64,000 nucleotides of DNA from a virus. The notes under the pieces were generated by a model. That model was not told the origin of the DNA and searched no databases. It worked only from the letters and a program-made list of their open reading frames with translations. This document shows, in pieces, positions 1,718 through 24,291 of this stretch. Each line of letters opens with the position of its first letter. Position 1 is the stretch's first letter. Position numbers and translations under genes: made by a program. The stretch is taken from the IMG/VR virus record IMGVR_UViG_3300030387_000070, one strand, 5' to 3'.

Positions 1718-1720
1718 GTT

Positions 1721-1891: not shown

Positions 1892-1900
1892 GGTGAGAAT

Positions 1901-2437: not shown

Positions 2438-2450
2438 AAGGGATATTGAT

Positions 2451-2639: not shown

Positions 2640-2668
2640 AAAGATTGATAAAAGGGAGATTTTAGATA

Positions 2669-3534: not shown

Positions 3535-3742
3535 GTCCTAAAAGGGGTTGAATAGATATGGCATATAAATACACCGAAGAAGAAGTTTGGGATGCGATTC
3601 ATACACTTTCTGATATGAGAGCTGGATTTAACTGCTTTGACGAAAATGATGTACAGAAGTATGAAGCGTGTTCAATGGGGATTGTTGCATTAAGAACGCT
3701 TGTGGACGCCGATAAAAGTTGAATTTTAGGAGGAAAATAAAG

Positions 3743-4237
3743 ATGGATAACAACATGATGGAACGTCAGATTGCTAATTATATGGTAGAGTATGGTACTA
3801 AGAATACAAATTATGGCACATGGGTGTTTGAGGTTGATGAACTGGCGAAAAAGTTCAATATTACAGAGAAATGGATTCAGGAACATGAAGACGGTATTAT
3901 GTCTGAGCTGTATCTCAGAGAAGAAGTGGCTGACGTTGAACGTGAATTAAGCGGCAATGATATGACTATCACACTTTTTGATGTGAATTTCTACACCGAC
4001 TATTGCCCTAACTACATTGAAGACAAACAGGAAAAGGATGATGACGTAAATCAGTATTGGTTTGCAGAAACACGTTGGTGTACCGATGATATTATTGGTA
4101 TTGCAAAAGACAATGGAATTAAAATGACTCCGCAGCAAGCAGAACAGTGGTGGAAGAAGAATGAAAATTGGTTCAAGAATATCATTGTAGAATATGGTAA
4201 TGAAGTGCTGGAAGATGCAGATTTTAGTGAGGTGTAA
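3743..4237 (+). CDS. hypothetical acidic Trp-rich protein
   Basis: RBS AGGAGG before ATG 3743. Confidence 0.45.
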   Translation: MDNNMMERQIANYMVEYGTKNTNYGTWVFEVDELAKKFNITEKWIQEHEDGIMSELYLREEVADVERELSGNDMTITLFDVNFYTDYCPNYIEDKQEKDDDVNQYWFAETRWCTDDIIGIAKDNGIKMTPQQAEQWWKKNENWFKNIIVEYGNEVLEDADFSEV

Positions 4238-4240
4238 GTT

Positions 4241-4477
4241 ATGTGGTGTGTTGTAGAGTGCAATTGTGACGGCGGAACTATTTTTAGCCCGGATTTTTTT
4301 GATACAAAGGAAGACGCAATTAAATTTATCGAAAATAATGCGAATGAATGCTACGAAAGTGAGTGTGATTTACCGGAAGCAAACATCTATATTGGAAATG
4401 ATGGACTTTCTGCCACAGTAAGCACTGATGAGTACAGTTGGGTATGGCAAGCATTTGATATTTCAAACAAGATTTAA
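4241..4477 (+). CDS. hypothetical protein
   Basis: ORF in array. Confidence 0.35.
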   Translation: MWCVVECNCDGGTIFSPDFFDTKEDAIKFIENNANECYESECDLPEANIYIGNDGLSATVSTDEYSWVWQAFDISNKI

Positions 4478-4492
4478 AAGGAGAGTTTTATT

Positions 4493-4651
4493 ATGAAGTA
4501 TCAGGTAACTGTAGCTCGTACTGGCTATGTTGAAATTGAAGCCGATAATGAACAAGAAGCGATGGATATTGTTGCAAACGATATGAACTCAAAAGATATT
4601 GAATGGACGTGTGATTTTACAGTAACGGATTGTGAAGAGAGTGAGGAATAA
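4493..4651 (+). CDS. hypothetical small protein (52 aa)
   Basis: RBS AAAGGAGAG upstream; not in the ORF track because it is under 60 aa. Confidence 0.3.
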   Translation: MKYQVTVARTGYVEIEADNEQEAMDIVANDMNSKDIEWTCDFTVTDCEESEE

Positions 4652-4654
4652 ATT

Positions 4655-5137
4655 ATGGCTATCGTAAATGGATTTGATACTCAGAAACTGCGGTATATCC
4701 TCTTTGGTGATAAAGGCTATGAGATATACAAGGAAAACGATTTTTACTACCTAAGTAATGGATATGGTTATAAGTATGATGAGAAAGATGGTTGGTCTGA
4801 TTCTGATATTACAATGCTCCACAAATATTTTGAATATGTAAATCCTAGTTGTTGTTCATATTGGGAAAAATTTCATGATATAAAAGAGTTTAGACGAATC
4901 TACTATCAAGAAAACCGAGATGGTTGTTTGTACACTTATCCGTGTATTGTTTGCGAGATGGACAATAGAAATAAGGCTTTACTAAATGAGAAGTATACAA
5001 ACATTCTAGCAAAAGCGAAAAAGTGGGGTTGGTTTGCAGAGTGTAAGGATAGTTTAAGCTGCGTTCACTTTATGAATAAACAGAACACTCTTGAAGCATG
5101 GATTTGTCCGATTCGTTACAAAGAAGGTGCTATCTAA
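4655..5137 (+). CDS. hypothetical Cys-rich protein
   Basis: RBS GAGGAA upstream. Confidence 0.4.
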   Translation: MAIVNGFDTQKLRYILFGDKGYEIYKENDFYYLSNGYGYKYDEKDGWSDSDITMLHKYFEYVNPSCCSYWEKFHDIKEFRRIYYQENRDGCLYTYPCIVCEMDNRNKALLNEKYTNILAKAKKWGWFAECKDSLSCVHFMNKQNTLEAWICPIRYKEGAI

Positions 5138-5331
5138 TGTTCTATCATCTTGAATACTCTGTCAGACACTTTATGTACGGCGATACATATAGAGGGCATG
5201 AAGTCTATCCCACAAAAGAGCTGCGCGATGCAGAACTTGACTGGATGAAAACGTGTTACAGCAAGCCGACAGAGCTTGTCTATACAACATATGAAACCGA
5301 AACACTTAATGAAGATAAGATAATAATATAA
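5137..5331 (+). CDS. hypothetical protein
   Basis: ATG 5137 overlaps the upstream stop (ATGA coupling). Confidence 0.35.
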   Translation: MFYHLEYSVRHFMYGDTYRGHEVYPTKELRDAELDWMKTCYSKPTELVYTTYETETLNEDKIII

Positions 5332-5344
5332 AGGAGAAAGATAT

Positions 5345-5605
5345 ATGTACAATGTTGATGAACATGATTTCAAAGTCAAAATTCATGATGGCTGGCTGAT
5401 TGCTACGGAATCGGCAGATAAAGAAAGCTTTCCGGGGATGGGAATTTTTTACTCTAAAGACGGGGAAACATTTTCATGGGACGATTTGATTACAATTGTT
5501 GAACAGGACGCAGAAAATGATAAGATTCAAACCGACCTGTATAAGAAAGGCTGCGAAGATTGTTGTTATGTTTTTAATTACGAAGATGGAGAATTGAGGA
5601 AGTGA
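5345..5605 (+). CDS. hypothetical protein
   Basis: RBS AAAGGAGAAAG upstream. Confidence 0.35.
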   Translation: MYNVDEHDFKVKIHDGWLIATESADKESFPGMGIFYSKDGETFSWDDLITIVEQDAENDKIQTDLYKKGCEDCCYVFNYEDGELRK

Positions 5606-5613
5606 GTGTTGTG

Positions 5614-5823
5614 ATGAAAAGCTGCTTCAATAGAAATTTCTTTAAATTTAAAACAAAGTCTGGGTACATTATTATTTTGACTTCAACGGATAAAAATGGG
5701 CACATGACTGCATTTGTATTTAGCTCAGTCGATGGAAAAACTTTTCATCCGTGGGATTTGATTAAGGTTTTTGATAACGAGGACGAGCGTATGGCAGATT
5801 TCAATTATGACGACATGAGGTGA
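5614..5823 (+). CDS. hypothetical protein
   Basis: ATG 5614 after GAGGAAGTGAG. Confidence 0.3.
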   Translation: MKSCFNRNFFKFKTKSGYIIILTSTDKNGHMTAFVFSSVDGKTFHPWDLIKVFDNEDERMADFNYDDMR

Positions 5824-5828
5824 GAGTT

Positions 5829-6125
5829 ATGACTAGTCGTGAGATTGCAGAAGATTTCATCAATACAATGAACCCGTCAAGGTGGGCTGGTGTTGGTCAA
5901 AAGCCTGAAAATTTTGACACTAGAATTGTTACATACACTATTGATGGTTTTCCTGAATATGAGCTTGATATTTCTTATGACGAAGACGATGAACTTGGTT
6001 ATATAGCAATGCTTGAACTGAGATGGTCAGATGATGAGGAGTTGATCTACGTCTTTGATGTCCATGAAATCAATTCTGAGGATGAAATTGAATCTTCAAT
6101 CAATTATCTTATTGATGATCTTTAA
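5829..6125 (+). CDS. hypothetical acidic protein
   Basis: RBS GAGGTGAG before ATG 5829. Confidence 0.35.
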   Translation: MTSREIAEDFINTMNPSRWAGVGQKPENFDTRIVTYTIDGFPEYELDISYDEDDELGYIAMLELRWSDDEELIYVFDVHEINSEDEIESSINYLIDDL

Positions 6126-6150
6126 TAGAATAATATAAAGGAGAATGAAT

Positions 6151-6324
6151 ATGACAAAATTTGAGAAACAGACGGTTATTAACGCATTGCATTTTTATAG
6201 CGAATATTGTTGCAACCACAGTGAAAAATCTGCGAATATGATAGCACAGAAATGTACGGCTGAAGGTTTGCTTTATACATTTCAATCTATTCTGGATGAA
6301 AATGCAGGAAGTGTAAAAATCTAA
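6151..6324 (+). CDS. hypothetical small protein (57 aa)
   Basis: RBS AAAGGAGAATG upstream. Confidence 0.3.
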   Translation: MTKFEKQTVINALHFYSEYCCNHSEKSANMIAQKCTAEGLLYTFQSILDENAGSVKI

Positions 6325-6344
6325 ATAGAATCGAGGTTTTAAAA

Positions 6345-6566
6345 ATGATTACAGTTGTTTATGACGATACGATGTGTAATGGTCCTTACCGTGTAGAGCA
6401 CAAAACAATGGAAGATGCGGTAGAGTCTGTTAATAATGATTTTGAGAGCTTGATGAAAGAATTGCGAGATGAAGGTTATGAACCTGAATGGATTCGTGAC
6501 GGTCATCATATGCTTGAGGTTTATGTTCCGAATACGTCTATTAACGCATGGTGGGATTTTGAGTAA
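6345..6566 (+). CDS. hypothetical protein
   Basis: ORF in array. Confidence 0.35.
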   Translation: MITVVYDDTMCNGPYRVEHKTMEDAVESVNNDFESLMKELRDEGYEPEWIRDGHHMLEVYVPNTSINAWWDFE

Positions 6567-6577
6567 GGAGAATTGAA

Positions 6578-6784
6578 ATGGACATTAACGAAATCAAAAT
6601 GTTTGAACAGAAGATGGTTGATAGCGCGTTTATTGACGCTGTTGATTATGATCCGAAGGTGGCTGCACGAGCTGTGGGAGCACGTAAGATGAAAATGAAG
6701 GGTGTGTGCTCCTTTAACGAATACATTGGTTATTTGCAGACGATTACCGGCAACGCAAAGTTGTTCTGGAAGTATCAGTTTTGA
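6578..6784 (+). CDS. hypothetical protein
   Basis: RBS AAGGAGAA upstream. Confidence 0.35.
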   Translation: MDINEIKMFEQKMVDSAFIDAVDYDPKVAARAVGARKMKMKGVCSFNEYIGYLQTITGNAKLFWKYQF

Positions 6785-6793
6785 GGTGATGAT

Positions 6794-7054
6794 ATGGTTT
6801 TGAAGCTTGAATTTACCGATGGTCACGAGCCATGGATATCATTTCCAATGAATAGAGAAGAGGCTTTAAACCTGTGGAATAAGCTGAGTAAGATGCCAAC
6901 GGTACGACCGGAGTTCAGGTTTGGCAAATTGAAGTGTCGCTGTGATTGTCTTGGCAACTGGTATGTTGCTCAGTGGTTTGATGGAATGCACAAGAGTAAG
7001 GAGTTCAGATATCTTGCCAACGCTTTGAAATACATGGAAAAAGAAACGGTTTAA
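6794..7054 (+). CDS. hypothetical protein
   Basis: RBS GAGGTGATG upstream. Confidence 0.35.
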   Translation: MVLKLEFTDGHEPWISFPMNREEALNLWNKLSKMPTVRPEFRFGKLKCRCDCLGNWYVAQWFDGMHKSKEFRYLANALKYMEKETV

Positions 7055-7076
7055 CGAATAGATTGTGAGGGTAAAA

Positions 7077-7337
7077 ATGTTTGTACTTATCAATACTTAT
7101 ATTGCAAAAGGTGAGAATTCATTTCTCCCAGAAGTTGTTTATAAAAAGGGTTTTAATACGATTCTTGAGGCGGAAAATGAAATGAACAAACAAGTGGACG
7201 ATATTCTTGTAAATCATTATTGTAAATATTATAAAGATGAAAGCGGTGAACAGAATTTTAGTGTTTTGCGATTAAAAGGTGATATTCGTATTGATGCTTG
7301 TGACGTATACGATTGGTGGAAAATCGTAGAGATTTGA
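7077..7337 (+). CDS. hypothetical protein
   Basis: RBS TGAGGG 5 nt before ATG 7077. Confidence 0.35.
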   Translation: MFVLINTYIAKGENSFLPEVVYKKGFNTILEAENEMNKQVDDILVNHYCKYYKDESGEQNFSVLRLKGDIRIDACDVYDWWKIVEI

Positions 7338-7365
7338 TAAAACAGTTCTTCTAGGAGGGAATAAT

Positions 7366-7557
7366 ATGATTGATAATAAGACTATGCTTTGCGCAATTGC
7401 AGGCAAACATAATATGGAAGTTCTTGAAGGGGCACTTGATACAGTCAATGAATTTTTGGATTCTGGTGCTGTTATTTATGTGAAAGTAAAAGGAAAAGAT
7501 GGTTTTGTAAAACTCGAAAAAATTGAAACCAGAGTGATGATTATGCCGTTTATTTAA
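7366..7557 (+). CDS. hypothetical protein
   Basis: RBS AGGAGGG upstream. Confidence 0.35.
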   Translation: MIDNKTMLCAIAGKHNMEVLEGALDTVNEFLDSGAVIYVKVKGKDGFVKLEKIETRVMIMPFI

Positions 7558-7579
7558 AAACATAAAGGAGTAAAACAAA

Positions 7580-8896
7580 ATGACTACTAACAATTCTATG
7601 ACCGTAATAACCTCTAAGCCCTTCGGCGCACTGAATGTGGATGTGTACCAGAATGATAAACATCAGTATTATATGACCCGTGAACAGATTGGGCGAGCAC
7701 TGGAATGTAAAGAACCTCGGAAGTACATTGCGAAGATTCATGAGCGTAATGCAGACCGTCTTGACCCGTTGAGCTCGGTCGTCAATTTGACGACTGAGGT
7801 CGGAAATTATACGCAAGAACGTCAAATATATATGTACAGTTTGCGTGGCGTAATGGAAATCTGCCGCCTTTCTCGTCAGCCGAAAGCAGATGCGTTTATG
7901 GATTTCTGCTGGGACATTATGGAATCTTTGATGCGTGGTGATTCCGTTCTTGCTACTCCTCAGATGGATGCTGCACTGAGTAAGGAGTTCATTGATGTAA
8001 GACTTCACGCTCTGTTTGATAGTGTGAAGAATCTTCAGAGTGAGCTTGATTCTACCCGGAAAAATCTTAGTGACCAGATCGAGGAGGCTCGTGCCACCAG
8101 TAATGAGGCACTGAATGTGATTAGCAGCGTATCTCAGTGTGTCCATCAGATTAAGGACAAGCAGATGGATGATGCGATTCGTTCTACCAGAAACTTCACT
8201 CCTCGTAAGGATGTGATGAGCGACTGGCGTAAGAAGATGTATGAACGTATCAATGTGATTGCCGCAATCAATGAAATGAAGGTTCAGGATGTATTTCGTG
8301 ATATTTACGAATATATGAATCGTGTCTATACCTTCGTTATTGAGGAAGAACGCAGAAAGTATTGTGCAAGAACCGGTCGCACTGGTCACATTCCTACGAT
8401 TGATATTGTTGAAGCAAGTACGATGTATAAGTCCATCTTTGGTGCTTTGGTTGAAGATTCGTATACTGAAGCAATCAATAAGAAGAAGGAAGAGACCGCT
8501 GAGCAGAAAGCTCTGCTTGAAGCTAAGGCTGTTGATGCAGCTCCTGAAGTAGATGTCTGTGTTGCTCCTGTGATTGAGGTAGAAGCTAAGGAAGTTGAGC
8601 CTGAACCGATTGTGGAGGAAAAGCCCAAGAAGCAGAGCGAAACGGCAAAAATTCTTTTCCCGATTCTGTTACCTTTGGCAGAAAAGCTTAATGATAAGCC
8701 TCAGTACAAGCACACTTATACTCTGATTTACGAGCGTATTGGCTATAAGAAAATGAATAATTTTTTTGTGGCTTACGAAAAGGCACATGGTAAGGCACCT
8801 CATCCGAAGACTAAGGTGTTTATCGAAAATGAAAAGAATCTCGCGCTGTTTAAGAAGACTGTGAAGCAGTTGATGAAAGAACAGGAGGATAAGTAA
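7580..8896 (+). CDS. phage antirepressor-like protein (Bro-N/ORF6N-like N-terminal domain)
   Basis: RBS AAAGGAG upstream; the N-terminal 120 aa (FGALNVDVYQNDKHQYYMTREQIGRALE...) resemble Bro-N/ORF6N antirepressor domains, with a Lys/Glu-rich C-terminus. Confidence 0.5.
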   Translation: MTTNNSMTVITSKPFGALNVDVYQNDKHQYYMTREQIGRALECKEPRKYIAKIHERNADRLDPLSSVVNLTTEVGNYTQERQIYMYSLRGVMEICRLSRQPKADAFMDFCWDIMESLMRGDSVLATPQMDAALSKEFIDVRLHALFDSVKNLQSELDSTRKNLSDQIEEARATSNEALNVISSVSQCVHQIKDKQMDDAIRSTRNFTPRKDVMSDWRKKMYERINVIAAINEMKVQDVFRDIYEYMNRVYTFVIEEERRKYCARTGRTGHIPTIDIVEASTMYKSIFGALVEDSYTEAINKKKEETAEQKALLEAKAVDAAPEVDVCVAPVIEVEAKEVEPEPIVEEKPKKQSETAKILFPILLPLAEKLNDKPQYKHTYTLIYERIGYKKMNNFFVAYEKAHGKAPHPKTKVFIENEKNLALFKKTVKQLMKEQEDK

Positions 8897-8956: not shown

Positions 8957-9139
8957 ATGCTCAAATATGGAAATATAACGTGTAAACGTTGTGGTATTAC
9001 ATGGTATGGACCAAAATGCGGAAAGCTTTACTGTGAAGAGTGTCGTAAGGTTGTAAACAACGAGAAGAGTCTCAAATGGTACAGAAGTAATAGAGAGCTT
9101 GTTGCAAGGAATCGTGCAGAGAGAAAGGCAATGAGGTGA
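8957..9139 (+). CDS. zinc-ribbon small protein
   Basis: Contains CxxC...CxxC (CKRCG...CEEC). Confidence 0.35.
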   Translation: MLKYGNITCKRCGITWYGPKCGKLYCEECRKVVNNEKSLKWYRSNRELVARNRAERKAMR

Positions 9140-9144
9140 ATGTG

Positions 9145-9963
9145 ATGAGTGCAGTTGTTGAAAGAAAAGAAGAACAGATATCTAAATTGATCTATTTTAA
9201 TCCGAAGCCTTCTGTTCCGGCTAAAAAACGTGGTGTTACAAAAAGTAAGCAGAAGCGCAAGCGTAATATTTCTCCAATTAGAAGCTTGGATGATGTTCAA
9301 ATGATTTCGGAATACTTCTGGGATAAAAAGCAATATCGCAATTGGTGTCTATTTAATGTAGGTATTGCAACTGGTTTGCGTGCTAGTGATTTGCTCAAAT
9401 TGAAGGTTTCCGATATGTCTTATTGCCTTTATAATGGAAAGATTGAAGTGGTTGAAGACGCTGGAGTTTGCATCGTTGAAGAAAAAACATCTAAATATCG
9501 TGAAATCATTCTTACTCCAGAAGCGAGAGATATCGTTGAAACATACATTAAGATTGCGAATCTTGGATATGACGATTGGATGTTTCCGTCTCGGCAGGGG
9601 AGTTGGAAAAAGTCATTGAGGACAAATGGTGGAGATGGGAAAACTGGTATTCCTCATATTGCAGAACCCAAAAAGGCCGGTGATCCTATTGATGTTGATT
9701 CTTTTGCTCGTATCCTTCGTAATGCTGGCAGAGATTTGGGTCTTAATTACAAGATTGCATCTCATTCTTGCCGTAAGACATTTGGTTATCGTGAGATGTG
9801 TCTTAATAAGGATGACAACCAGGCATTGTCTTGGATTCAGGGTCAGTTGAATCATAGTAGTCAGGACATTACATTACGGTACGTTGGTTTTGATGAGGAT
9901 AAGGCAAAAGAATATTATAAGAAGACTTTTTATGGTGTGAATACACACAGCTTGGAAGACTGA
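9145..9963 (+). CDS. tyrosine site-specific recombinase (phage integrase family catalytic domain)
   Basis: Catalytic residues recognised by eye: Arg box GLRASDLLKLKV, HSCRKTFG (His-x-x-Arg) and LNHSSQDITLRYV (His plus the nucleophilic Tyr). Start is uncertain between GTG 9136, GTG 9142 and ATG 9145. Confidence 0.65.
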   Translation: MSAVVERKEEQISKLIYFNPKPSVPAKKRGVTKSKQKRKRNISPIRSLDDVQMISEYFWDKKQYRNWCLFNVGIATGLRASDLLKLKVSDMSYCLYNGKIEVVEDAGVCIVEEKTSKYREIILTPEARDIVETYIKIANLGYDDWMFPSRQGSWKKSLRTNGGDGKTGIPHIAEPKKAGDPIDVDSFARILRNAGRDLGLNYKIASHSCRKTFGYREMCLNKDDNQALSWIQGQLNHSSQDITLRYVGFDEDKAKEYYKKTFYGVNTHSLED

Positions 9964-14653: not shown

Positions 14654-14686
14654 ATGGCATCATCTAAAATTTCGATAAATAATACA

Positions 14687-14738
14687 ACAAAAAGATGTGT
14701 AATATATTGACGAAAACAAAAAGATGTGTATAATATAT
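14687..14738. repeat. tandem 29-bp direct repeat (ACAAAAAGATGTGTA-ATATAT, two copies)
   Basis: Seen directly; overlaps the promoter at 14707-14734. Confidence 0.6.
14707..14734 (+). promoter_or_regulatory. sigma70-type promoter (TTGACG, 16 nt spacer, TATAAT)
   Basis: -35 at 14707-14712 and -10 at 14729-14734, upstream of the CDS at 14777. Confidence 0.45.
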
Positions 14739-15122: not shown

Positions 15123-15151
15123 TTGACTTATATGGTTGTATCCTGTATAAT
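15123..15151 (+). promoter_or_regulatory. consensus sigma70 promoter (TTGACT, 17 nt spacer, TATAAT) overlapping an inverted copy of the 21-bp motif
   Basis: -35 at 15123-15128 and -10 at 15146-15151; motif copy GTATCCTGTATAATATAGCTATG at 15138-15160. Confidence 0.6.
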
Positions 15152-15194
15152 ATAGCTATGGAACGGAGCTACACTATTATAGAGGAGAAAGATT

Positions 15195-15614
15195 ATGGAC
15201 AACAATATTGACCCAAAGGTCGGAGAGGTTTGGTTGGTCGATTTGTCAAATGCGACAGGTCATCAGCAGCGCGGTATTCGACCGTTCGTTGTGACGAGCA
15301 ACAATAAGCGCAACTTCTTTAGCCCCACAATCAAAGGGAATCCATTGTCTTCCAGAATATACAAGCGCTCTCCGGTTCATGTTCTACTTTCAAAGGAAGA
15401 TTGTGATTTCTTAGAAGTTGACAGTATCGTTCTTTGTGAAGAGACTGACACGCTTAACAAAGGACAGTTCATCAAAAAACTTGGTGTCTTGTCGGAACGT
15501 CAGATGAATATGATTGCAATGGCAAGATGTAAGGATGAACCGTTTTTGCTCGCAGCATTCCTGAGCGGCGTACAACATACTATGGAATTTCAGAATTTTG
15601 CCGCATTTGCTTGA
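15195..15614 (+). CDS. MazF/PemK-family endoribonuclease toxin-like protein
   Basis: RBS GAGGAGAAAG upstream; the N-terminus VGEVWLVDLSNATGHQQRGIRPFVVTSNN and overall pattern match the PemK/MazF fold; no MazE-like antitoxin seen upstream. Confidence 0.65.
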   Translation: MDNNIDPKVGEVWLVDLSNATGHQQRGIRPFVVTSNNKRNFFSPTIKGNPLSSRIYKRSPVHVLLSKEDCDFLEVDSIVLCEETDTLNKGQFIKKLGVLSERQMNMIAMARCKDEPFLLAAFLSGVQHTMEFQNFAAFA

Positions 15615-15667
15615 TTTTTTATAATGTTTAATGGTACACTACATATAATAAGAAGGAGTGTGCCACT

Positions 15668-16594
15668 ATGCTTACTGAAGAAAAAATCAACGCTTTTGCC
15701 GAAAGGTATTCTGATAAAAGCGGTAAGTTTGTTGTATCGACACTTAACAATGTTATGATCTATGAGGCCGAGTGTGGGTATGAGTTGTTTGATTTTACAA
15801 AAAATGATTTTGTAAAGATGTTTGCAAAATACAATTGGGTGAACTCAAGTCGTTCATTTAGAAATGTGAAATCAATAATCACTGGCTACATCAAAAGTGA
15901 AGATCGTACAAGTTTGTATGACTTGGCTGAATTTTCGGAAAATGACGTAAGTTCAGACGATATGTATGCAGACAAGTATTTTGCATCGGTTGATGAATTT
16001 GTTGACTTATTAAATAAATACGAAGAGCCATATCAGATTCGTATGAACGTGATTGCTGTATTATACTGGATCGGACTTACCGCTGGTGAAATTGTTAATC
16101 TAACAATCAATGATGTTGATTTTGAATCTCGTACTGTTCTCAATAGGACTGGTATTGATGCGAGGTTGATGGATATCATCAAGCAGTGTTATGAAATGAA
16201 ACAATATGATGCTCCCAACATGGGAGGATACAGAACGTTTTATGTCATAAACGGTGATTACATCCTTCGCAAAACAGAGGACAGGACTGGAGCAGACAGT
16301 GACCCAAAGATATCTACAAATACAATTCATACCTATTTTATGAGATTGAATGATATTCTCGAAAAAAGAGGTTGTTCTAAGATTTTGGACCAAAGACATT
16401 TAACAAGAAACAACGAGTATATCAAGGTTTATGACTATTGCAAAACTCATCCAGAATTTAATCTTGTAGAACTTAGCTTCGGAAATGGTAAAGATCCTCT
16501 TGCAGACATTATCGGAAGAAAGTGTAGCAAGGTAGCCTATATTAGCTTCCGGCAAGGATACAAGGGCTGGATTGAGTATTTCCATAAAAATTAA
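15668..16594 (+). CDS. hypothetical protein (308 aa)
   Basis: RBS AAGGAG upstream. Confidence 0.4.
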   Translation: MLTEEKINAFAERYSDKSGKFVVSTLNNVMIYEAECGYELFDFTKNDFVKMFAKYNWVNSSRSFRNVKSIITGYIKSEDRTSLYDLAEFSENDVSSDDMYADKYFASVDEFVDLLNKYEEPYQIRMNVIAVLYWIGLTAGEIVNLTINDVDFESRTVLNRTGIDARLMDIIKQCYEMKQYDAPNMGGYRTFYVINGDYILRKTEDRTGADSDPKISTNTIHTYFMRLNDILEKRGCSKILDQRHLTRNNEYIKVYDYCKTHPEFNLVELSFGNGKDPLADIIGRKCSKVAYISFRQGYKGWIEYFHKN

Positions 16595-16598
16595 AAAT

Positions 16599-16621
16599 AG
16601 GGGCTTCGGCCCCTTAATTTT
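16599..16621 (+). terminator. rho-independent terminator (AGGGGC-TTCG-GCCCCT plus T-run)
   Basis: Perfect 6-bp GC stem with a TTCG loop followed by TAATTTT. Confidence 0.6.
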
Positions 16622-16628
16622 AACACGT

Positions 16629-16649
16629 TAGCTATATAATACAGGATAC
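16629..16649 (+). promoter_or_regulatory. 21-bp promoter-associated motif TAGCTATATAATACAGGATAC, direct copy
   Basis: Contains TATAAT at 16635-16640, about 20 nt before the RBS of the Pnkp-like gene. Confidence 0.5.
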
Positions 16650-16670
16650 TTATTAGAAAGGGAAATGTAG

Positions 16671-18884
16671 ATGAGAACGCTTTTGCTGTTCCGTGGAGCA
16701 CCAGGTTGTGGGAAGTCCACCTATATTAAAGAGCATAATCTTGAGCAGTATGTATTGAATGCTGATACACTTCGACTTATGTGCCAGAGCGCACAGGAAA
16801 CACCTGCCGGGCGGATGGAGATCTCTCCGCAGAATGATGATGTTGTATGGGAGATGCTTTTCAAACTGCTTGAGGTGCGTATGAGTCATGGCGAGTTTAC
16901 CGTGATTGATGCAACGAATTCCAAGACGGTCGAAATGAATCGTTATAAGAATCTTGCAAAACAGTATCGTTATCGGATGTATGTTATTGACATGACGGAC
17001 CTTCCGATTGAGGAATGCAAACGAAGAAACGCTCAGAGAGAATGGCTGAATCGAGTTCCTGAAGCGGCCATTGATAAGATGTACGCTCGGTTTGCTACTC
17101 AAAAAGTTCCTTCTGGTGTGACAGTTCTTCCTTCTACTACGGATGTGATGTCCGATTTGAACTACTGTCCGAATGACTTCAACCAGTGGAAGAAGATCCA
17201 TATCATCGGTGATGTTCATGGCTGTTATACTTGTTTAAGTGAATACCTTGGTGAGATGAAGGACGACGAACTGTATATCTTCGTTGGTGATTATCTCGAT
17301 CGTGGCATCGAAAACGTTGAGGTATTCAAGTTCTTGTGTGATGTTGTAAATAACAACCGCAAGAATGTGATCCTTTTGGAGGGCAATCATGAGTGTTGGC
17401 TAAACAAGTGGGGGCATGATGAACCGGTTCAGAGTGAAGAGTTTGCAAACTACACTCGTCCGCAGCTCTTTAAAGCCGGTATTGACAAGAACACTGCTCG
17501 TAAGATCTATTCCAGAGTAGGCCAATGTGCCTACTTTGAGTATGATGGGAAGCGGTATTTCGTGAGCCACGGTGGTTTGAGTTATCTGCCTTATTTTCTT
17601 CCTTTCGTATCTGCTGATCAGATGATTAAAGGTGTAGGTCGCTATCCTGATATGCTAACCGTGGCTGAGTCTTGGGAAAAATCGATGCCGGATAGCTACA
17701 TTCAGATCTTCGGCCATCGAAATGTGCAGGATGTTCCTATTGATATGGGGCATCGGTGCTACAATCTCGAAGGAAAAATCGAGTTTGGTGGATATCTCCG
17801 TTGCGTTGAACTTGAACACGGTCAGTCAATCAAATGTGTAGAAACCAAGAACGATGTGTTCCGAAAAGAGGAGCCAAAGACTGAAACTGCCGTTGAAATG
17901 AAAACTGAGTTCGATAACGCAGAACTTGTTAGTAAGATGCGTCAAAGCAAATATGTGTTTGAGAAGCGATTCGGAGATATTTCTTCTTTCAACTTCTCTC
18001 GTGAAGCATTTTATAAGAAGCACTGGGATGAGGTTTCTACCAAAGCAAGGGGATTGTTCATTAACACAAAGACGAATAAGATTGTAGCTCGAAGCTATGA
18101 TAAGTTCTTTGCGGTTGATGAGCGGAATGAAACGAGAATTGGAAACCTACAGAACACTTTGAAGTTCCCAGTGACTGCATATCTAAAAGAGAACGGATTT
18201 CTTGGTATCATTTCGTATGATGCAGAACAGGATGGTCTGTTCATTGCAAGTAAATCCACTCCTGAAGGGCCTTTTGCAGATATGTTCCGAAAGATTATTA
18301 TGGATACTACTTCCGATGAAGATCGTAAGAATCTGAAGGAGGTTGCCAAGGAGCATGGCTCCATCATCTTTGAGGTTATTGATCCTGTGAATGATGCTCA
18401 TATCATAGAATACAAGAAACCGCACATTGTTTTGCTGGATGTTGTTGCAAACGATATGAATTTCAGTGTGATAGATTATGATGACTTGAAACGTGTCGCA
18501 GAAAAGTGTCATCTGCAGATTAAGGAGAAGGTTAAAACCTTTGAGAACTGGAGTGAATTCTATCCTTGGTATGAGGAAGTCATGAATGAGAACTATCTGT
18601 ACCATGACATCGAGCATGTTGAAGGCTTTGTTCTGAGAGATAGTAACAACTTTATGTTCAAGTTAAAGCTTCCTTATTATAAGCATTGGAAGTTCCTGCG
18701 TGGTGTTATGAAGAGCGTCCAGAAACGTGGCTATTACGAAAACACCGCCAAGCTGTTTACGGCTGAAGATAATTTGTTCTATGGTTGGATGCGTGAGCAA
18801 CGAGAGAAAGATCAAGAGGCGTTCAGCAAGAAGGGAATCATTCAGCTGCGAAATGAGTTCTATGCAAGTCAGCAGAAGAGTTGA
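16671..18884 (+). CDS. polynucleotide kinase-phosphatase-ligase (Pnkp-like RNA repair enzyme): P-loop kinase, calcineurin-like phosphoesterase and nucleotidyltransferase (ligase-like) domains
   Basis: Walker A GAPGCGKST at the N-terminus; metallophosphoesterase motifs GDVHG, GDYLDRG and GNHE; C-terminal nucleotidyltransferase motifs KENG (KxNG), EGFVLR and KLKLPYYK. Confidence 0.65.
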   Translation: MRTLLLFRGAPGCGKSTYIKEHNLEQYVLNADTLRLMCQSAQETPAGRMEISPQNDDVVWEMLFKLLEVRMSHGEFTVIDATNSKTVEMNRYKNLAKQYRYRMYVIDMTDLPIEECKRRNAQREWLNRVPEAAIDKMYARFATQKVPSGVTVLPSTTDVMSDLNYCPNDFNQWKKIHIIGDVHGCYTCLSEYLGEMKDDELYIFVGDYLDRGIENVEVFKFLCDVVNNNRKNVILLEGNHECWLNKWGHDEPVQSEEFANYTRPQLFKAGIDKNTARKIYSRVGQCAYFEYDGKRYFVSHGGLSYLPYFLPFVSADQMIKGVGRYPDMLTVAESWEKSMPDSYIQIFGHRNVQDVPIDMGHRCYNLEGKIEFGGYLRCVELEHGQSIKCVETKNDVFRKEEPKTETAVEMKTEFDNAELVSKMRQSKYVFEKRFGDISSFNFSREAFYKKHWDEVSTKARGLFINTKTNKIVARSYDKFFAVDERNETRIGNLQNTLKFPVTAYLKENGFLGIISYDAEQDGLFIASKSTPEGPFADMFRKIIMDTTSDEDRKNLKEVAKEHGSIIFEVIDPVNDAHIIEYKKPHIVLLDVVANDMNFSVIDYDDLKRVAEKCHLQIKEKVKTFENWSEFYPWYEEVMNENYLYHDIEHVEGFVLRDSNNFMFKLKLPYYKHWKFLRGVMKSVQKRGYYENTAKLFTAEDNLFYGWMREQREKDQEAFSKKGIIQLRNEFYASQQKS

Positions 18885-19001
18885 GTTAAAATAGACATTT
18901 TATCGTGATTTTCGTTAAAATAATTAACGAAGTATCGTGATATTTATTCCTCCGAAAATGCCATGCGTGGGGCTGACAGCCGGGAAAGACCGGCGATATA
19001 T

Positions 19002-19086
19002 GCCAAGGTGCTGCAAATGGGAGACAGGGCGAGCCCAAACCTCGCTGTGGAAACACATGCGGTTTCGAATACCGTCCTTGGCACCA
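19002..19086 (+). tRNA. tRNA-Leu(CAA), type II, CCA encoded
   Basis: Hand-folded: acceptor GCCAAGG/CCTTGGC, U8, T-loop TTCGAAT, long variable arm, anticodon loop CCCAAAC with an unusual C33, discriminator A73. Confidence 0.55.
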
Positions 19087-19114
19087 GATAATTTTATGAA
19101 GAAAGGATGATTGC

Positions 19115-19798
19115 ATGGTTAATAGGGCAGAAGATCATATTGGTGATGTCTTTGATTTGTTTGAGGTGATTGATGTTATTCGAGATGAAAATAATATTCC
19201 ATCTTACAAATGTCGATGTAAAGAATGTGGATGGACAGGGCTAAAAAATATAGCTCAGGCGAGAGCGGTTAAAGTGTGTCGGCATAAACAATCGAGTGGC
19301 GATTATAGAAATTTTTCTACACGGTGGAAAAACAAAAGAATCGGACGAATCTTTCATGGAATGAAAGCAAGATGCTATGATGTTGATGATAAAAACTATA
19401 TAACGTATGGCATGAAAGGAATTTGTGTTTATCAAGAATGGTTGGATAATCCAAAGTCATTTGAAGAGTGGTCGTTGAAAAATGGATACAAAGATAGTTT
19501 GACAATCGATAGAATTGATTCGACAAAAGATTACTGTCCTGATAATTGCAGATGGATATCATTGGAAGATAATTCAAAATATAAATCCACAACTCGAATG
19601 TTAGAAGTAGATGGTGAAATACATACGGGACGTGATTGGGCGGCAGAATTAGGGCTTGGAACAAACACGATAAATAAATATGTAAGAAGATACGGAGAAG
19701 ATAATACAAAACAATTTATAAGAAGAGTATTAAAGGACCCGGATAAAGTGAATTCTCGACAAGGGAAACAAACTATCTATAATCTTTACATGAACTAA
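19115..19798 (+). CDS. HNH homing endonuclease (HNH_3-type)
   Basis: HNH signature IDRIDSTKDYCPDNCRWISLEDN; low GC relative to neighbours; sits between tRNA genes. Confidence 0.55.
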   Translation: MVNRAEDHIGDVFDLFEVIDVIRDENNIPSYKCRCKECGWTGLKNIAQARAVKVCRHKQSSGDYRNFSTRWKNKRIGRIFHGMKARCYDVDDKNYITYGMKGICVYQEWLDNPKSFEEWSLKNGYKDSLTIDRIDSTKDYCPDNCRWISLEDNSKYKSTTRMLEVDGEIHTGRDWAAELGLGTNTINKYVRRYGEDNTKQFIRRVLKDPDKVNSRQGKQTIYNLYMN

Positions 19799-19805
19799 AT
19801 TGAAA

Positions 19806-19847
19806 TGGCCCAGTGTAAAAACTGAGTACATTGGGCCAAATATTTAT
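19806..19847 (+). terminator. rho-independent terminator (TGGCCCA...TGGGCCA plus AT-rich tail)
   Basis: 7-bp inverted repeat at 19806-19812 and 19832-19838 after the HNH gene. Confidence 0.45.
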
Positions 19848-19851
19848 ATGA

Positions 19852-19935
19852 GCACCCGTGGTGAAATTGGCAACCACGATGGACTTAAAATCCATTCCCG
19901 GTAACGGGTTGCGAGTCCGAGTCTCGCCGGGTGCA
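19852..19935 (+). tRNA. tRNA-Leu(TAA), type II
   Basis: Acceptor GCACCCG/CGGGTGC, anticodon loop CTTAAAA, 15-nt variable arm, A73. Confidence 0.65.
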
Positions 19936-19940
19936 TATTT

Positions 19941-20016
19941 CTGGGCGTAGCGAAGTTGGCATCGCACCTGTTTTGGGAACAGGGGACCGCAAGTTCAAAT
20001 CTTGTCGCTCAGACCA
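19941..20016 (+). tRNA. tRNA-Pro(TGG), CCA encoded
   Basis: Anticodon loop TTTGGGA, T-loop TTCAAAT, acceptor with one G-U pair, ends ACCA. Confidence 0.65.
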
Positions 20017-20023
20017 CTACGAG

Positions 20024-20111
20024 GATTCGCCAAGTTGGTAAGGCAGCGGAATTTGACTCCGCCAGCGCTGAACAAGCGGTCACAGGTTCGAGTCCTGTAT
20101 CCTCGGCTTAT
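20024..20111 (+). tRNA. anomalous type-II tRNA with anticodon TTG (Ser-like G73 body)
   Basis: Acceptor CGAGGAT/ATCCTCG, U8, D-arm GCC-AAGTTGGTAA-GGC, anticodon arm GCGGA-ATTTGAC-TCCGC, 19-nt variable arm, T-loop TTCGAGT, discriminator G. Confidence 0.45.
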
Positions 20112-20113
20112 AT

Positions 20114-20198
20114 GCGGGTATGGTGTAACTGGCAGCCACGTCAGATTTAGGATCTGATGCCGAAAGGCGTGAGGGATCGTGCCCCTCTACCCGTACCA
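20114..20198 (+). tRNA. tRNA-Leu(TAG), type II, CCA encoded
   Basis: Anticodon arm TCAGA-TTTAGGA-TCTGA, 13-nt variable arm, A73, CCA present. Confidence 0.6.
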
Positions 20199-20298
20199 CG
20201 GTCATAGAATGGTTGCGTACCGTTTGTTGATCTCCTTTACTATTATTCCCGGCTCGCCAGTGATGGTGCAGTAGTGCTTTGTAAGCTGGGTTTTCATG

Positions 20299-20372
20299 CA
20301 GCGGTCGTACAACGGCTAGTACATCAGCCTTCCAAGCTGAGGATGAGGTTTCGACTACCTTTCGCTGCTCCA
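20299..20372 (+). tRNA. tRNA-Gly(TCC), CCA encoded
   Basis: Acceptor GCAGCGG/TCGCTGC, anticodon loop CTTCCAA, T-loop TTCGACT, ends TCCA. Confidence 0.6.
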
Positions 20373-20560
20373 ATCTTGTATGGGTAGGATCTTTAGCGGT
20401 CAGATCCAGCCGCGCCTGTGCAAGATACCACCCCGAAAGGGGCGAGATATAGGAAATGTGCATCGCTGTTATTCCTTCCTCGTCTATATGATATAGATGC
20501 AATAGTGTTTTATAAGGAAGGTCCCCAGTTGAATAGTTGCAGCTGTTTGACTGGTAATAT

Positions 20561-20634
20561 GGGATAGTAGCTCAGTTGGTCAGAGCTGGCGGCTCATAAC
20601 CGCTTGGTCGCGAGTTCAAATCTTGCCTGTCCCA
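20561..20634 (+). tRNA. tRNA-Met(CAT), elongator-like
   Basis: Acceptor GGGATAG, D-arm GCTC-AGTTGGTCA-GAGC, anticodon loop CTCATAA, T-loop TTCAAAT; the 1-72 pair is formed, so not an initiator. Confidence 0.6.
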
Positions 20635-20742
20635 CTAACCCGATAGGGTGAATACATAGAATTTGCTAGAAATTTTGTTTTATGGGCGAATAAATAATAT
20701 GACGTTGATACGTCTATTATTTTTCGCTAATTTTTAAAGTTT

Positions 20743-20763
20743 TAGCTATGTAACACAGGATAC
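20743..20763 (+). promoter_or_regulatory. 21-bp promoter-associated motif, direct variant TAGCTATGTAACACAGGATAC
   Basis: Motif copy 3 nt before the AAAGGAGG RBS of the methyltransferase N-terminal part. Confidence 0.45.
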
Positions 20764-20780: not shown

Positions 20781-21503
20781 GTGAAACATTATGGAAGTAT
20801 TTGCGAGATTGATGGTTCTAAGATTGAGCCTGTCTCGTGTATCACTGGTGGTTCACCTTGTTAGCCAAGACCTTTCTATTGCCGGCAAGCGGGCAGGTTT
20901 GGCTGGAGAACGGTCTGGTCTATTTATGGAAATGATTCGTGTGATAAAGGAGATGAGGGAGGCCACCAATGGAGAGTATCCAAAATTTGCAATCTGGGAA
21001 AACGTCCCAGGAGCCTTCTCTTCCAACAAAGGAGAAGACTTTAGATGTGTCTTGGAAGAATTTGCACGCATTGTCGAACCAAGTGTTTCAGTTCCTCGAC
21101 CTTCGGGAAGAGAATGTAAGTGGGCAAAAGCTGGAGCAATCGCCGGAAACGGATGGTCCTTGGCGTGGAGATTATTCGACGCTAGTGGTTGGGGTGTTCC
21201 CCAGCGTAGAAAACGTCTCGCGCTTGTCATGGACCTTAGAGGACAATGTGCCGGAAAAGTATTATTTGAGCAAACGGGCGTGTCAGGGGATCTTGATAAG
21301 AGCGTCAAGACGTGGAAAACCATTGCCCGACCTTCTGAAGGATGCACTGCAGGAGATGATTCATTGGTGGGAGATGAAAGATCCTACACTTTGAAGATTC
21401 GTTCTGGCTGCGCAGGGGGGGTAAAGGAGCACTCGTGCAGAATGAATTGAGTGCGACTCTCTCCACTTTGCAAGATCAGACTTTGTTCTGTGTAAAGCAT
21501 TAA
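20781..21503 (+). pseudogene. N-terminal part of a DNA (cytosine-5) methyltransferase (motifs IV, VI, VIII) split across three reading frames
   Basis: GTG 20781 after AAAGGAGG. Frame 0 reads VKHYGSICEIDGSKIEPVSCITGGSPC then TAG at 20853-20855. Frame 1 continues (S)QDLSIAGKR...ENVPG...QRRKRLALV...SYTLKIRSGCAGG. At the G7 run 21415-21421, frame 0 reads GKGALVQNELSATLSTLQDQTLFCVKH and stops at TAA 21501. Confidence 0.55.
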
Positions 21504-21515: not shown

Positions 21516-22262
21516 TTGGAAAAAGAAACCAGTTTACATAATTTAAAACAAAATATTTCCACAGCGGTATTTGAAAGCCATAGTCAGGATGCTCGATACA
21601 CTCAGCAAGGTAATACAAGCCCAGCTTGTACAGCTCAATGGGGTACTGGTGGTAATAATATGCCGCTTGTCGCTGAAAAGAAAGCCTTTGCTATGCAGCG
21701 TATTGGCGAATATAAGGAAAGCGAACAGGCCAGCACAATGAAATCTCGTGATTATAAAGATGCAACTGATCTTGTAGTTGAAGAGAAAGAGGTGAAATGT
21801 GCTGGGTTTCCACTTGGATTTAGAGCAGAAAATACGAAATGCTACGATGAAGTGGCTACTACGCTTTGCAATGGTACGCGGCCTGGATTTACTACTGGAT
21901 GTGTTCTCAATTGGATTGTTCGCCGCTTGACTCCTGTTGAGTGTGAACGGTTACAGGGTTTTCCTGATGGATGGACCGATATTGGCGAGTGGGTTGACGA
22001 AAATGGTAAAAAGCACAAGCCAGCCGATTCTCCTCGGTACAAGGCGCTCGGCAATTCGATTGCTTTGCCTCAGTGGTATTGGATTTGCCAGAAGATGAAA
22101 CCGTATATTGGTGAAAATCCTACGCTTGGCAGTCTTTTCGATGGAATCGGTGGCTTTCCGCTTGTCTTTGAAAGTACGTATGGTGATGGTACTGCTATCT
22201 GGGGATCTGAAATTGAATCGTTTTGTGTTGCGGTGACAAAGAAGCATTTTCCAGAAGACTAA
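21516..22262 (+). CDS. C-terminal part of a C5 methyltransferase (TRD, motif IX, motif X) fused to MTase motifs I and II
   Basis: RBS AAGGAGG 7 nt before TTG 21516. Contains RRLTPVECERLQGFPDGWT (motif IX), YKALGNSIALP (motif X), then SLFDGIGGFPL (motif I) and WGSEIE (motif II) before the stop. Confidence 0.55.
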   Translation: MEKETSLHNLKQNISTAVFESHSQDARYTQQGNTSPACTAQWGTGGNNMPLVAEKKAFAMQRIGEYKESEQASTMKSRDYKDATDLVVEEKEVKCAGFPLGFRAENTKCYDEVATTLCNGTRPGFTTGCVLNWIVRRLTPVECERLQGFPDGWTDIGEWVDENGKKHKPADSPRYKALGNSIALPQWYWICQKMKPYIGENPTLGSLFDGIGGFPLVFESTYGDGTAIWGSEIESFCVAVTKKHFPED

Positions 22263-24270: not shown

Positions 24271-24291
24271 TAGCTAAGTAATACAGGATAC
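24271..24291 (+). promoter_or_regulatory. 21-bp promoter-associated motif, direct variant TAGCTAAGTAATACAGGATAC
   Basis: Copy located 37 nt before ATG 24328. Confidence 0.45.

Follow-up and report, generated by a model that had tools for sequence, protein, structure and literature searches.

The DNA described here is a stretch of 64,000 nucleotides from a virus, record IMGVR_UViG_3300030387_000070 of IMG/VR. This stretch, the window, makes up 64 kb of a genome of about 135 kb, and whatever we report as missing from the window was sought in those 64 kb. It carries a predicted endoribonuclease of the MazF type (open reading frame, or ORF, 15195; ORFs are named by their first position), preceded by a small ORF (14777) and followed by a gene which we read as the master lysogeny repressor of the phage (15668). 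Behind a terminator-like hairpin come a trifunctional RNA repair enzyme of the Pnkp type (16671) and an array of tRNA genes. All genes around mazF lie on the plus strand of the ORF map; coordinates are collected in Table 1. A preliminary description of this DNA had taken the nuclease, the repair enzyme and the tRNA genes together as an RNA cleavage and repair module, or as a self-immunity pair. The sequence features which it named were all found at the coordinates given, and neither of the two results that it had said would refute it was obtained. Comparison of related loci did not bear this out. Only the repressor gene and the small upstream ORF stay with MazF throughout, and the region is best explained as two units of an SPbeta-like temperate phage that are independent of each other, Unit 1 at about 15123-16614 and Unit 2 from the inverted copy of a 21-nt element onwards.

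Table 1. Predicted genes and sequence features of the mazF locus and of its surroundings in the 64-kb window.
Feature	Position	Strand	Remarks
YopP-like tyrosine-recombinase gene	9136-9963		SPbeta synteny
Two direct repeats AACAAAAAGATGTGTAWWATAT, 29 bp apart	14686-14707, 14715-14736	+	cover -35 and -10 of the ORF 14777 promoter TTGACG-16-TATAAT
Small fast-evolving ORF, 108 aa	14777-15103	+	position conserved upstream of MazF in every lineage examined
MazF promoter, sigma-A/sigma-70-type, TTGACT-17-TATAAT (11/12 consensus)	15123-15151	+	invariant in 80 relatives
21-nt element GTATCCTGTATAATATAGCTA, copy 1	15138-15158	+	overlaps -10 and +1 of the MazF promoter
MazF/PemK-family endoribonuclease (predicted), 139 aa	15195-15614	+	PF02452, phrog_1936 and PDB matches
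Promoter-like site, weaker, TTGCCG-16-TATAAT	15598-15625	+	junction of MazF and MrpR-like genes
MrpR/YopR/SroF-like repressor (predicted), 308 aa	15668-16594	+	tyrosine-recombinase fold, catalytic Arg-I replaced (G136-L137-T138)
Intrinsic-terminator-like hairpin, AGGGGCTTCGGCCCCT then T-rich tail	16599-16614	+	after the repressor; GC-rich
21-nt element, copy 2	16629-16649	- (inverted)	after the repressor terminator; start of the variable accessory slot
Trifunctional RNA repair enzyme (predicted), 737 aa	16671-18884	+	Pnkp-type kinase, metallophosphoesterase, Rnl1/Trl1-type ligase
tRNA array, 7 genes: Leu-CAA, Leu-UAA, Pro-UGG, Gln-UUG, Leu-UAG, Gly-UCC, Met-CAU	19002-20635	+	
21-nt element, copy 3	20743-20763	-	upstream of DNA methyltransferase ORFs
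YorF-like gene	23157		
21-nt element, copy 4	24271-24291	-	upstream of the YorG/Sak4-like gene
YorG/Sak4-like gene	24328		
YorI DnaB helicase	27433		
YorJ	28966		
YorK, RecJ-like	29985		35% identical to SPbeta YorK, E 4e-109
YorL DnaE-type polymerase	33324		
21-nt element, copies 5-7	39695, 39754, 39823 (within 39695-39843)	+, -, -	upstream of gene 39857

The assignment of ORF 15195 to the PemK/MazF fold was sound. The PF02452 (PemK_toxin) profile matched it with an E-value (E) of 2.1e-19 and 70.1 bits (cut-off 23.1); the match spans residues 8-109 of the protein and positions 1-103 of the 109 in the profile. A second profile, phrog_1936, annotated as a MazF-like growth inhibitor, matched with E 7.5e-22. 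Solved MazF structures from S. aureus (E 5e-14) and B. subtilis (E 5e-11) were also found. In the structure alignments Arg29 pairs with the arginine of a G-V-R-P motif and Ser52 with the threonine of A-I-T, residues which we take to be the catalytic R25 and T48 of B. subtilis MazF. Among 18 homologues, with identities down to 41%, R29 was invariant and position 52 was always Ser or Thr. The protein is a real MazF and is probably active as an endoribonuclease. It is also under the strongest purifying selection of the neighbourhood, with a ratio of nonsynonymous to synonymous substitution rates (dN/dS) of 0.024; the value is 0.047 for the repair enzyme and rises to 0.090 for the repressor and 0.126 for the upstream ORF. 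In close relatives 124 of 417 nucleotide positions of mazF vary and the proteins are still 97-100% identical, so their sameness reflects selection and not a short time of divergence. We considered whether an antitoxin is fused to the C-terminal tail and rejected this: in the alignment, the conserved DEPFL..AFL segment corresponds to the last helix that MazF normally has, and the C-terminus has only about 14 extra residues, similar to S. aureus MazF.

The gene directly downstream, ORF 15668, had been put forward as an uncharacterised candidate partner. It is a constant neighbour of mazF and probably encodes a repressor of the MrpR/SroF type. Alone, it gave weak matches to MrpR_N_CB (PF22822) and Phage_integrase. 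Eleven of eleven members of its family, however, matched PF22822 (best E 4e-8), and a profile of 11 homologues, three of them 24-28% identical members from diverged phages, found SPbeta YopR/MrpR as the top match in the PDB (E 6e-4), with genuine recombinases ranking lower in the same search (E >= 0.03). Comparison with SPbeta YopR by hhalign gave E 2.4e-5 and 76% probability over 233 collinear columns. PF22823 (MrpR_C_cat) is listed as a precomputed match, marked weak, on most database homologues. The recombinase motif G-L-R-x-x-E reads G136-L137-T138 here (GLT(A/S)xE) and is invariant in the family, so that the catalytic arginine Arg-I is replaced by Thr138; Arg-I is the only catalytic position that could be placed reliably, as the C-terminal half of the structural model is poor. 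The corresponding residues of MrpR, a protein that no longer works as a recombinase and serves SPbeta as its master repressor, are G136-V137-S138 (PMC10516654). The genome position of ORF 15668 is also of the SPbeta type, upstream of an accessory early region and of the yorF-yorL replication block. We therefore read ORF 15668 as the probable master lysogeny repressor of this phage, with the caveat that the homology is remote.

To follow the locus through related phages, we searched IMG/VR and found 141 stretches encoding a relative of MazF and 123 encoding a relative of the repair enzyme. The comparisons use the best 80 of the 141 (MazF-anchored) and the best 80 of the 123 (Pnkp-anchored), the kept relatives being 88-100% identical and mostly on contigs of about 110-140 kb, and seven diverged lineages in which MazF is 60-71% identical were added; the DNA downstream was readable in six of these seven. 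The small ORF, mazF and the MrpR-like gene were present and adjacent in all 80 MazF-anchored and in 79 of 79 Pnkp-anchored loci, with repressors 79-100% identical among close relatives. The same order, an ORF of 100-127 aa, mazF and an ORF of 319-348 aa, was seen in each of the seven diverged lineages, and six of the seven downstream ORFs matched PF22822. The order of mazF and repressor was thus held even where the repressor had diverged to 27-32% identity, and this adjacency in 7/7 lineages, in spite of the divergence of the repressor and the turnover of the surrounding genes, argues against chance placement. So constant an association points to a role in lysis-lysogeny control rather than in an RNA arms race.

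Signals for transcription agree with a mazF-repressor unit. In a promoter scan of 12 kb, the three best matches on the plus strand precede ORF 14777, mazF and the tRNA block; the consensus promoter noticed earlier in front of mazF is indeed there. Its -35 and -10 hexamers and the sequence GTATCCTGTATAAT(A/G)TAGCTA are unchanged in the 80 relatives, and the spacer varies. No terminator was predicted between mazF and the MrpR-like gene, where a weaker promoter-like site is found, and no LexA box was found near the unit.

The mazF promoter overlaps one copy of a 21-nt element, GTATCCTGTRTWAYRTAGCTA, which occurs seven times in the window where 0.01 copies would be expected. The element is not palindromic and is found in both orientations, always between genes and at or just upstream of gene starts; copy 5 lies in a perfect TTGACA-17-TATAAT promoter. 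In two of the diverged lineages, L160 and L163, where the repressors are 27-32% identical, a different element, TTTGTTAKTATATAT, is present at the mazF promoter and, inverted, upstream of the repair enzyme gene; in L160 only, it is also found upstream of the YorG-like gene. Reports on SPbeta phages describe a similar pattern: MrpR binds a repeated element, SPBRE, at about ten promoters including that of its own operon, and SroF is reported to bind as a monomer to a 24-bp asymmetric operator whose sites are scattered through the genome. From the distribution of the 21-nt element we infer that the MrpR-like repressor may use it as an operator, the counterpart of SPBRE, with early and replication genes downstream of it. 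If so, the mazF-repressor unit would be negatively autoregulated. We also considered the inverted copies as the ends of an invertible or mobile cassette. This was rejected, as there are seven copies over 25 kb and the recombinase-fold protein lacks Arg-I; the segment between the inverted repeats was inverted in none of about 160 related loci. The direct repeats AACAAAAAGATGTGTAWWATAT at the promoter of ORF 14777 match SPBRE (ACAAAAAATATGTATA, extracted from SPbeta) at 13 of 16 positions, which may point to a second type of operator or to a chance match of AT-rich sequence; we mention these repeats as a lead only.

By its gene order the phage is SPbeta-like; it is temperate, with a genome of about 135 kb (relatives, about 125-150 kb), and belongs to a group very common in the human gut. 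The order of genes follows SPbeta, namely a YopP-like integrase, the repressor, an accessory early region and then YorF, YorG, YorI, YorJ, YorK and YorL. Its temperate nature shows in near-identical genes found in contigs 200-784 kb long and in one locus that belongs to an isolate genome in IMG. As the phage is temperate and contigs with homologues reach 784 kb, mazF must be tolerated in lysogens.

Work on the Bacillus phages phi3T and SPbeta has connected MazF with lysogeny. The host MazF promotes lysogeny of these phages, AimX and YosL are MazE-like inhibitors of MazF under which lysis can proceed, MazF is released from MazE by YopM/phi3T_93, which the repressor operon encodes as its first product, and MazF is said to degrade most phage mRNAs with the exception of the sroF operon (PMC10769878; bioRxiv 10.1101/2023.04.27.537455; bioRxiv 10.1101/2025.11.27.690993). 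The explanation that we favour, and to which we give an even chance, is that the phage lineage described here carries its own MazF within the lysogeny unit, made together with the repressor at the point of decision and then throttled by it. We favour it because of the SPbeta architecture, the MrpR/SroF type of the repressor, the invariant adjacency, and the shared promoter with its candidate operator. On infection, the strong promoter would produce MazF and repressor together. MazF would cut phage transcripts, host transcripts or both and tilt the infection to lysogeny, as the host MazF does for phi3T and SPbeta. The rising repressor would then shut its own promoter, giving a pulse of MazF followed by a low level in the lysogen, which could explain why a classical antitoxin is not needed. 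An additional inhibitor, if there is one, may be the product of ORF 14777 or a lytic-phase protein similar to AimX or YosL. Both the activity of MazF and its role in lysogeny are deduced here from sequence comparison.

Several observations weigh against this explanation. The match to MrpR is remote; ORF 15668 alone scores 20.6 bits on PF22822, the cut-off of which is 27. Its AlphaFold model, built from a shallow alignment, is poor (pLDDT 59), and the top Foldseek matches of this model, namely MrpR, YopR and the SroF-Sar complex, carry little weight. BLAST found no match in the window to SPbeta YosL, YopM, AimR or AimP, nor to AimX- or MazE-like proteins. A toxin expressed along with a repressor in a lysogen normally needs an antitoxin, and none was found. 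The 21-nt element could be a shared promoter or an element of the 5' untranslated region instead of an operator, and the co-transcription of mazF and repressor, as well as negative autoregulation, are suggested by consensus scans. Two scans of species-representative genomes gave no host, and the host may or may not have a MazEF of its own. We also looked for signs that the operon is spared by MazF. The motif UACAU, which is that of B. subtilis and may not be that of this MazF, occurs at 2.4 per kb in the mazF-repressor unit and at 1.6 per kb in the window, which is the chance level. Among 61 unique variants of the unit no convincing avoidance of any k-mer was seen, the absent k-mers being rare and GC-rich. 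As neither UACAU nor other k-mers are depleted, sparing of the mazF-repressor operon finds no support here.

The small ORF upstream of mazF leads to a different explanation. MazF may be the toxin of a non-canonical toxin-antitoxin (TA) or exclusion module, neutralised by the product of ORF 14777 or by another inhibitor and expressed in the lysogen beside the repressor, in which case it would serve abortive infection, superinfection exclusion or prophage stabilisation and not the lysis-lysogeny decision, comparable to rexAB with lambda cI. MazF-family toxins are established abortive-infection effectors (see also bioRxiv 10.1101/2023.04.27.537455). The ORF of 100-127 aa lies directly upstream of mazF, the usual position of mazE, in every lineage examined, and it evolves fast, as antitoxins do: relatives of ORF 14777 are 76-100% identical, compared with 97-100% for MazF, and its dN/dS is 0.126. 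The upstream ORFs of different lineages show weak collinear similarity (hhalign P 0.007-0.02). On the strength of this kept position, the fast evolution and the weak similarity between lineages, ORF 14777 stays a candidate for a non-canonical partner or inhibitor of MazF. Against a TA module, ORF 14777 matched no antitoxin family, in line with the earlier remark that it is unrelated, and gave no match in Pfam, PHROG or PADLOC. It has just eight relatives among 1.8 billion cluster representatives, and the fold predicted for its product, a beta sandwich of the PH/YojF type, does not resemble MazE. The ORF ends 92 nt before mazF and each of the two genes has its own promoter, that of mazF being a consensus one, unlike a translationally coupled TA pair. 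No PADLOC defence-system model was matched. We hold a TA or exclusion module to be unlikely, if still worth taking seriously.

The search for an antitoxin was also extended beyond this ORF. The statement that mazF has no MazE-like partner stands for the flanking ORFs, which matched no antitoxin or defence family in Pfam, PHROG or PADLOC, and for the 74 small ORFs of the window, none of which matched the MazE, PemI, AbrB, RHH or Phd families. An adjacent antitoxin of the MazE/PemI type with an AbrB or RHH DNA-binding domain, by which a type II mazEF operon would be recognised, was not found. An acidic ORF of 52 aa at 4493-4651 was picked up by a regular expression of the GY[ML]E[ML] type as possibly MazE-, YosL- or AimX-like; this candidate was set aside as doubtful, since the ORF is weakly DpnD/PcfM-like instead.

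A bolder form of the lysogeny explanation would make the small ORF, mazF and the repressor gene a self-contained, toxin-based lysis-lysogeny switch, in which MazF enforces lysogeny through the destruction of lytic transcripts and is neutralised by the repressor or by the PH-like small protein and not by a MazE. Inactivation of the repressor at induction would then de-repress the lytic genes and change MazF activity simultaneously. We consider such a switch distinctly unlikely. If it were true, a TA-like circuit would lie at the heart of the lysis-lysogeny decision in a large family of phages abundant in the human gut, and the use of MazF in lysogeny would be ancestral to the SPbeta lineage and not a peculiarity of Bacillus.

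Downstream of the terminator, the 737-aa protein has the kinase-phosphoesterase-ligase order that was ascribed to it, with all motifs intact. The kinase domain (AAA_33) covers residues 4-142 (E 5e-23), the calcineurin-type, binuclear phosphoesterase domain (Metallophos, PF00149) residues 175-353 (E 1e-15), and the ligase domain (RNA_lig_T4_1, PF09511) residues 458-670 (E 1e-39, profile positions 1-227 of 227); phrog_8238 matches the protein over its whole length (E 1e-224). In homologues at 45-54% identity, the kinase motifs GxPGxGK(S/T), D32 and R35, the phosphoesterase motifs GDxHG, GDxxDRG, GNH, HGG and GHR, and the ligase motifs K506-x-N-G, FEV568, EGxV654 and K664-L-K666 are all invariant. 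The nearest solved relatives of the kinase region are 4GP7/4JST (E 2e-6), chains of the C. thermocellum Pnkp kinase domain, followed by Pnkp1 (4XRP) and T4 Pnk. The ligase region matched only fungal Trl1 ligase domains (9QW7, E 1.6e-16) and T4 Rnl1 (E 5e-7) in the PDB, and no bacterial Pnkp ligase structure at E up to 10. The ligase lysine, K506 of the KENG motif, together with EGFVLR and FKLK, aligns to the solved Trl1 ligase domains, and the alignment reaches residue 731, C-terminal domain included. The likeness to bacterial Pnkp thus holds for the domain order, the kinase and the phosphoesterase, but not for the ligase, a member of the Rnl1/Trl1 type. As had been observed, there is no adjacent Hen1-like gene; the methyltransferase ORFs nearby are of the DNA methyltransferase type. 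Those two ORFs, 20791-21450 (219 aa) and 21516-22262 (248 aa), give partial DNA methyltransferase matches to phrog_116 and phrog_16427, and look like one gene that was split, frameshifted or interrupted.

By these matches the enzyme belongs to a phage family and should not be filed as a bacterial Pnkp. The phrog_8238 family is found in 130 phage records, with full-length homologues 38-44% identical over 99% of the length. They include the Bacillus SPbeta-like phages SPbetaL2, Goe11 and Goe12 (44%), about 100 strictly lytic Twort-like staphylococcal phages (38%), and Lactobacillus, Brochothrix and Fusobacterium phages. In the literature searched, no biochemical study of this repair-enzyme family was found.

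That MazF damages RNA, as host shut-off factor or toxin, and that the kinase-phosphoesterase-ligase reverses its cuts together with the tRNA array, was the idea with which the locus had been introduced. The chemistry is compatible with it: MazF cleavage products are substrates of heal-and-seal enzymes. The two genes are also probably co-regulated, given that the same 21-nt element is found at the mazF promoter and at the slot of the repair enzyme. RNA-repair-type genes recur downstream of the repressor in diverged lineages. The full enzyme is present in L160 and L163, L177 has a 408-aa kinase and metallophosphoesterase without a ligase domain (6587-7813), and L178 has an Rnl2-type RNA ligase (PF09414; 9529-10432), 4 kb away, in place of Pnkp. 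In the Bacillus SPbeta-like phages, which exploit the host MazF, a gene for the same enzyme lies about 4 kb downstream of yopR.

The distribution of the enzyme nevertheless speaks against a joint module. It is absent from about 20 of the 80 close relatives, which keep an identical MazF. Of the 80 MazF-anchored loci, 53 have Pnkp alone in the slot behind the repressor, about 19 have an unrelated pair, phrog_1735 and phrog_2018, and six have both. Among the six readable diverged lineages only L160 and L163 have the full enzyme and no Pnkp-type gene is found in L162, L178 and L179, so that it is missing or truncated in four of six. The terminator-like hairpin at 16599-16614 separates the mazF unit from the repair gene. 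Where the slot is filled by the other cassette, the 21-nt element still precedes it, and where both cassettes are present only the first has the element; as it stays whichever cassette fills the slot, the element belongs to the slot and not to Pnkp. The tRNA arrays vary independently of Pnkp as well: tRNA genes are absent from the fetched L160 and L163 loci, which have the enzyme, and present in L001, which does not. The enzyme family occurs in the strictly lytic Twort-like phages, and the 76 phage records with MazF include no staphylococcal group among the commonest organisms (the overlap was not directly compared). Because Pnkp and the tRNA genes come and go and the mazF-repressor pair stays, MazF, Pnkp and the tRNA array assort independently. 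From this distribution, the repair enzyme is an optional, swappable accessory cassette, and a cleavage-and-repair module has a low probability. In the two-unit explanation, Unit 2 would be an accessory slot, the RNA breaks for its repair enzyme would come most likely from host anticodon nucleases, and MazF cuts would be a possible but not required substrate.

The least probable of the explanations, which we regard as very improbable, makes MazF a lytic-phase host shut-off nuclease that needs no antitoxin in a doomed cell and whose place beside the repressor is merely historical; solitary MazF-like genes are common in phages (76 records, some in structural or replication modules) and the mazF promoter is a strong constitutive-type consensus, but the adjacency to the repressor in all seven diverged lineages at 27-32% repressor identity, and the need to tolerate mazF in the lysogens of a temperate phage, speak against it.

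Some further features of the surroundings were noted. The alternative cassette consists of a 690-aa phrog_1735 protein and a 127-aa coiled-coil-like phrog_2018 protein (L001 7486-9558 and 9573-9956; the slot corresponds to 16650-18900 of the window), neither of which has a Pfam or PADLOC match. The tRNA array is split by an HNH homing-type endonuclease gene at 19115-19798 (phrog_3377, E 1e-37), with tRNA-Leu(CAA) at 19002-19086 on one side and six tRNAs at 19852-20635 on the other; as only three of 80 relatives carry the HNH gene, it is a mobile insertion. In diverged relatives, genes of the SPFH/Band_7 type recur downstream of the repressor. The Lar restriction-alleviation family (PF14354, E 5e-10) was matched by one of the 74 small ORFs in the window; a 76-aa ORF of the relative L172 (7221-7451) also belongs to this family. 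In L160, the region just upstream of the mazF block (588-7361) encodes isochorismatase/nicotinamidase, NAMPT/NAPRTase and NAD synthase, a set for salvage and synthesis of nicotinamide adenine dinucleotide (NAD), which may counter NAD-depleting defences. The sole long minus-strand ORF of the window, 852 aa at 61436-63994, overlaps plus-strand ORFs at 61538-63283, and no homologue of the SPbeta RNA polymerase YonO was detected in the window, this ORF included. A search of phage records for the host gave tRNA matches only.

The closest known system is that of the arbitrium phages phi3T and SPbeta with the host MazEF, with which the locus shares the SPbeta architecture, a repressor of the SroF/MrpR type and a MazF-family RNase tied to the repressor operon (PMC10769878; bioRxiv 10.1101/2023.04.27.537455). 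It differs in that MazF is encoded by the phage, directly upstream of the repressor and in place of SPbeta yopQ/sroE; in that no homologue of MazE, AimX, YosL, YopM or AimR/AimP was found in the window; and in that the predicted repressor operon has two genes, for MazF and the repressor, compared with six in SPbeta. No Bacillus SPbeta-like phage was among the leading matches of this MazF in the phage collection. With MrpR/YopR/SroF (PDB 8A0A, 8BJ6, 9RGL), ORF 15668 has in common a probable N-terminal core-binding domain, a probable degenerate catalytic domain, the loss of Arg-I at G-x-x and the genome position, at an identity to YopR of only about 15-18%. The SPBRE system has multiple long asymmetric repeats at distant promoters, including that of its own operon, as does the candidate system here; the candidate operator reads GTATCCTGTATWAYATAGCTA and SPBRE reads A-rich...ATATGTATA.

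Solitary phage MazF genes of phrog_1936 also encode a PemK-fold protein with no annotated MazE. Those examined lie in replication or structural modules, some of them in Enterocloster and Lachnospiraceae phages, whereas the MazF described here is fixed beside a repressor and is 29-40% identical to them. The best match in an isolated phage, 38% identical, is from Psychrobacillus phage Perkons, with a genome of 137 kb. It was rejected as an independent case of a MazF-MrpR pair, since the nearby 328-aa ORF is CoiA_N-like and not MrpR-like.

The repair enzyme resembles C. thermocellum Pnkp-Hen1 in the order of kinase, binuclear metallophosphoesterase and ligase and in its kinase, which is nearest to 4GP7, and differs from it in the Rnl1/Trl1-type ligase (PF09511) and in having no Hen1 partner. 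It would share the heal-and-seal chemistry with T4 Pnkp plus Rnl1 and with fungal and plant Trl1, and ligase motifs I, IV and V align; in contrast to these, a single polypeptide is predicted to have all three activities, with the kinase first, the phosphoesterase next and the ligase last. Healing of the 3' end falls to a metalloenzyme domain of the lambda-phosphatase type, unlike the DxDxT phosphatase of T4 and the 2H cyclic phosphodiesterase of Trl1. Its architecture is identical to that of the phrog_8238 proteins, of which it is one more member.

MazF, the MrpR/SroF-type repressor and the repair enzyme are thus each of a known kind; what we did not find in earlier descriptions is a phage MazF fixed to an SroF/MrpR-type repressor gene across diverged gut phages. 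In the literature searched, neither the phrase 'phage-encoded MazF' nor a report of MazF beside MrpR/SroF was found. The RNA-repair neighbour is to be treated as an independent, swappable counter-defence cassette of the widespread phrog_8238 family, and a phage 'toxin without antitoxin' is not necessarily an orphan or a weapon for shut-off. The pairing of MazF with a repressor bears on the open question of how MazF promotes lysogeny. If our explanation is true, a distant and very abundant gut branch of the SPbeta architecture has its own MazF joined to the repressor gene, and the compact module, two or three genes and a candidate operator, would make the mechanism testable without the genetics of a host MazEF. 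In that case the connection of MazF with lysogeny would go far back and be shared widely within this lineage, and would not be specific to Bacillus.

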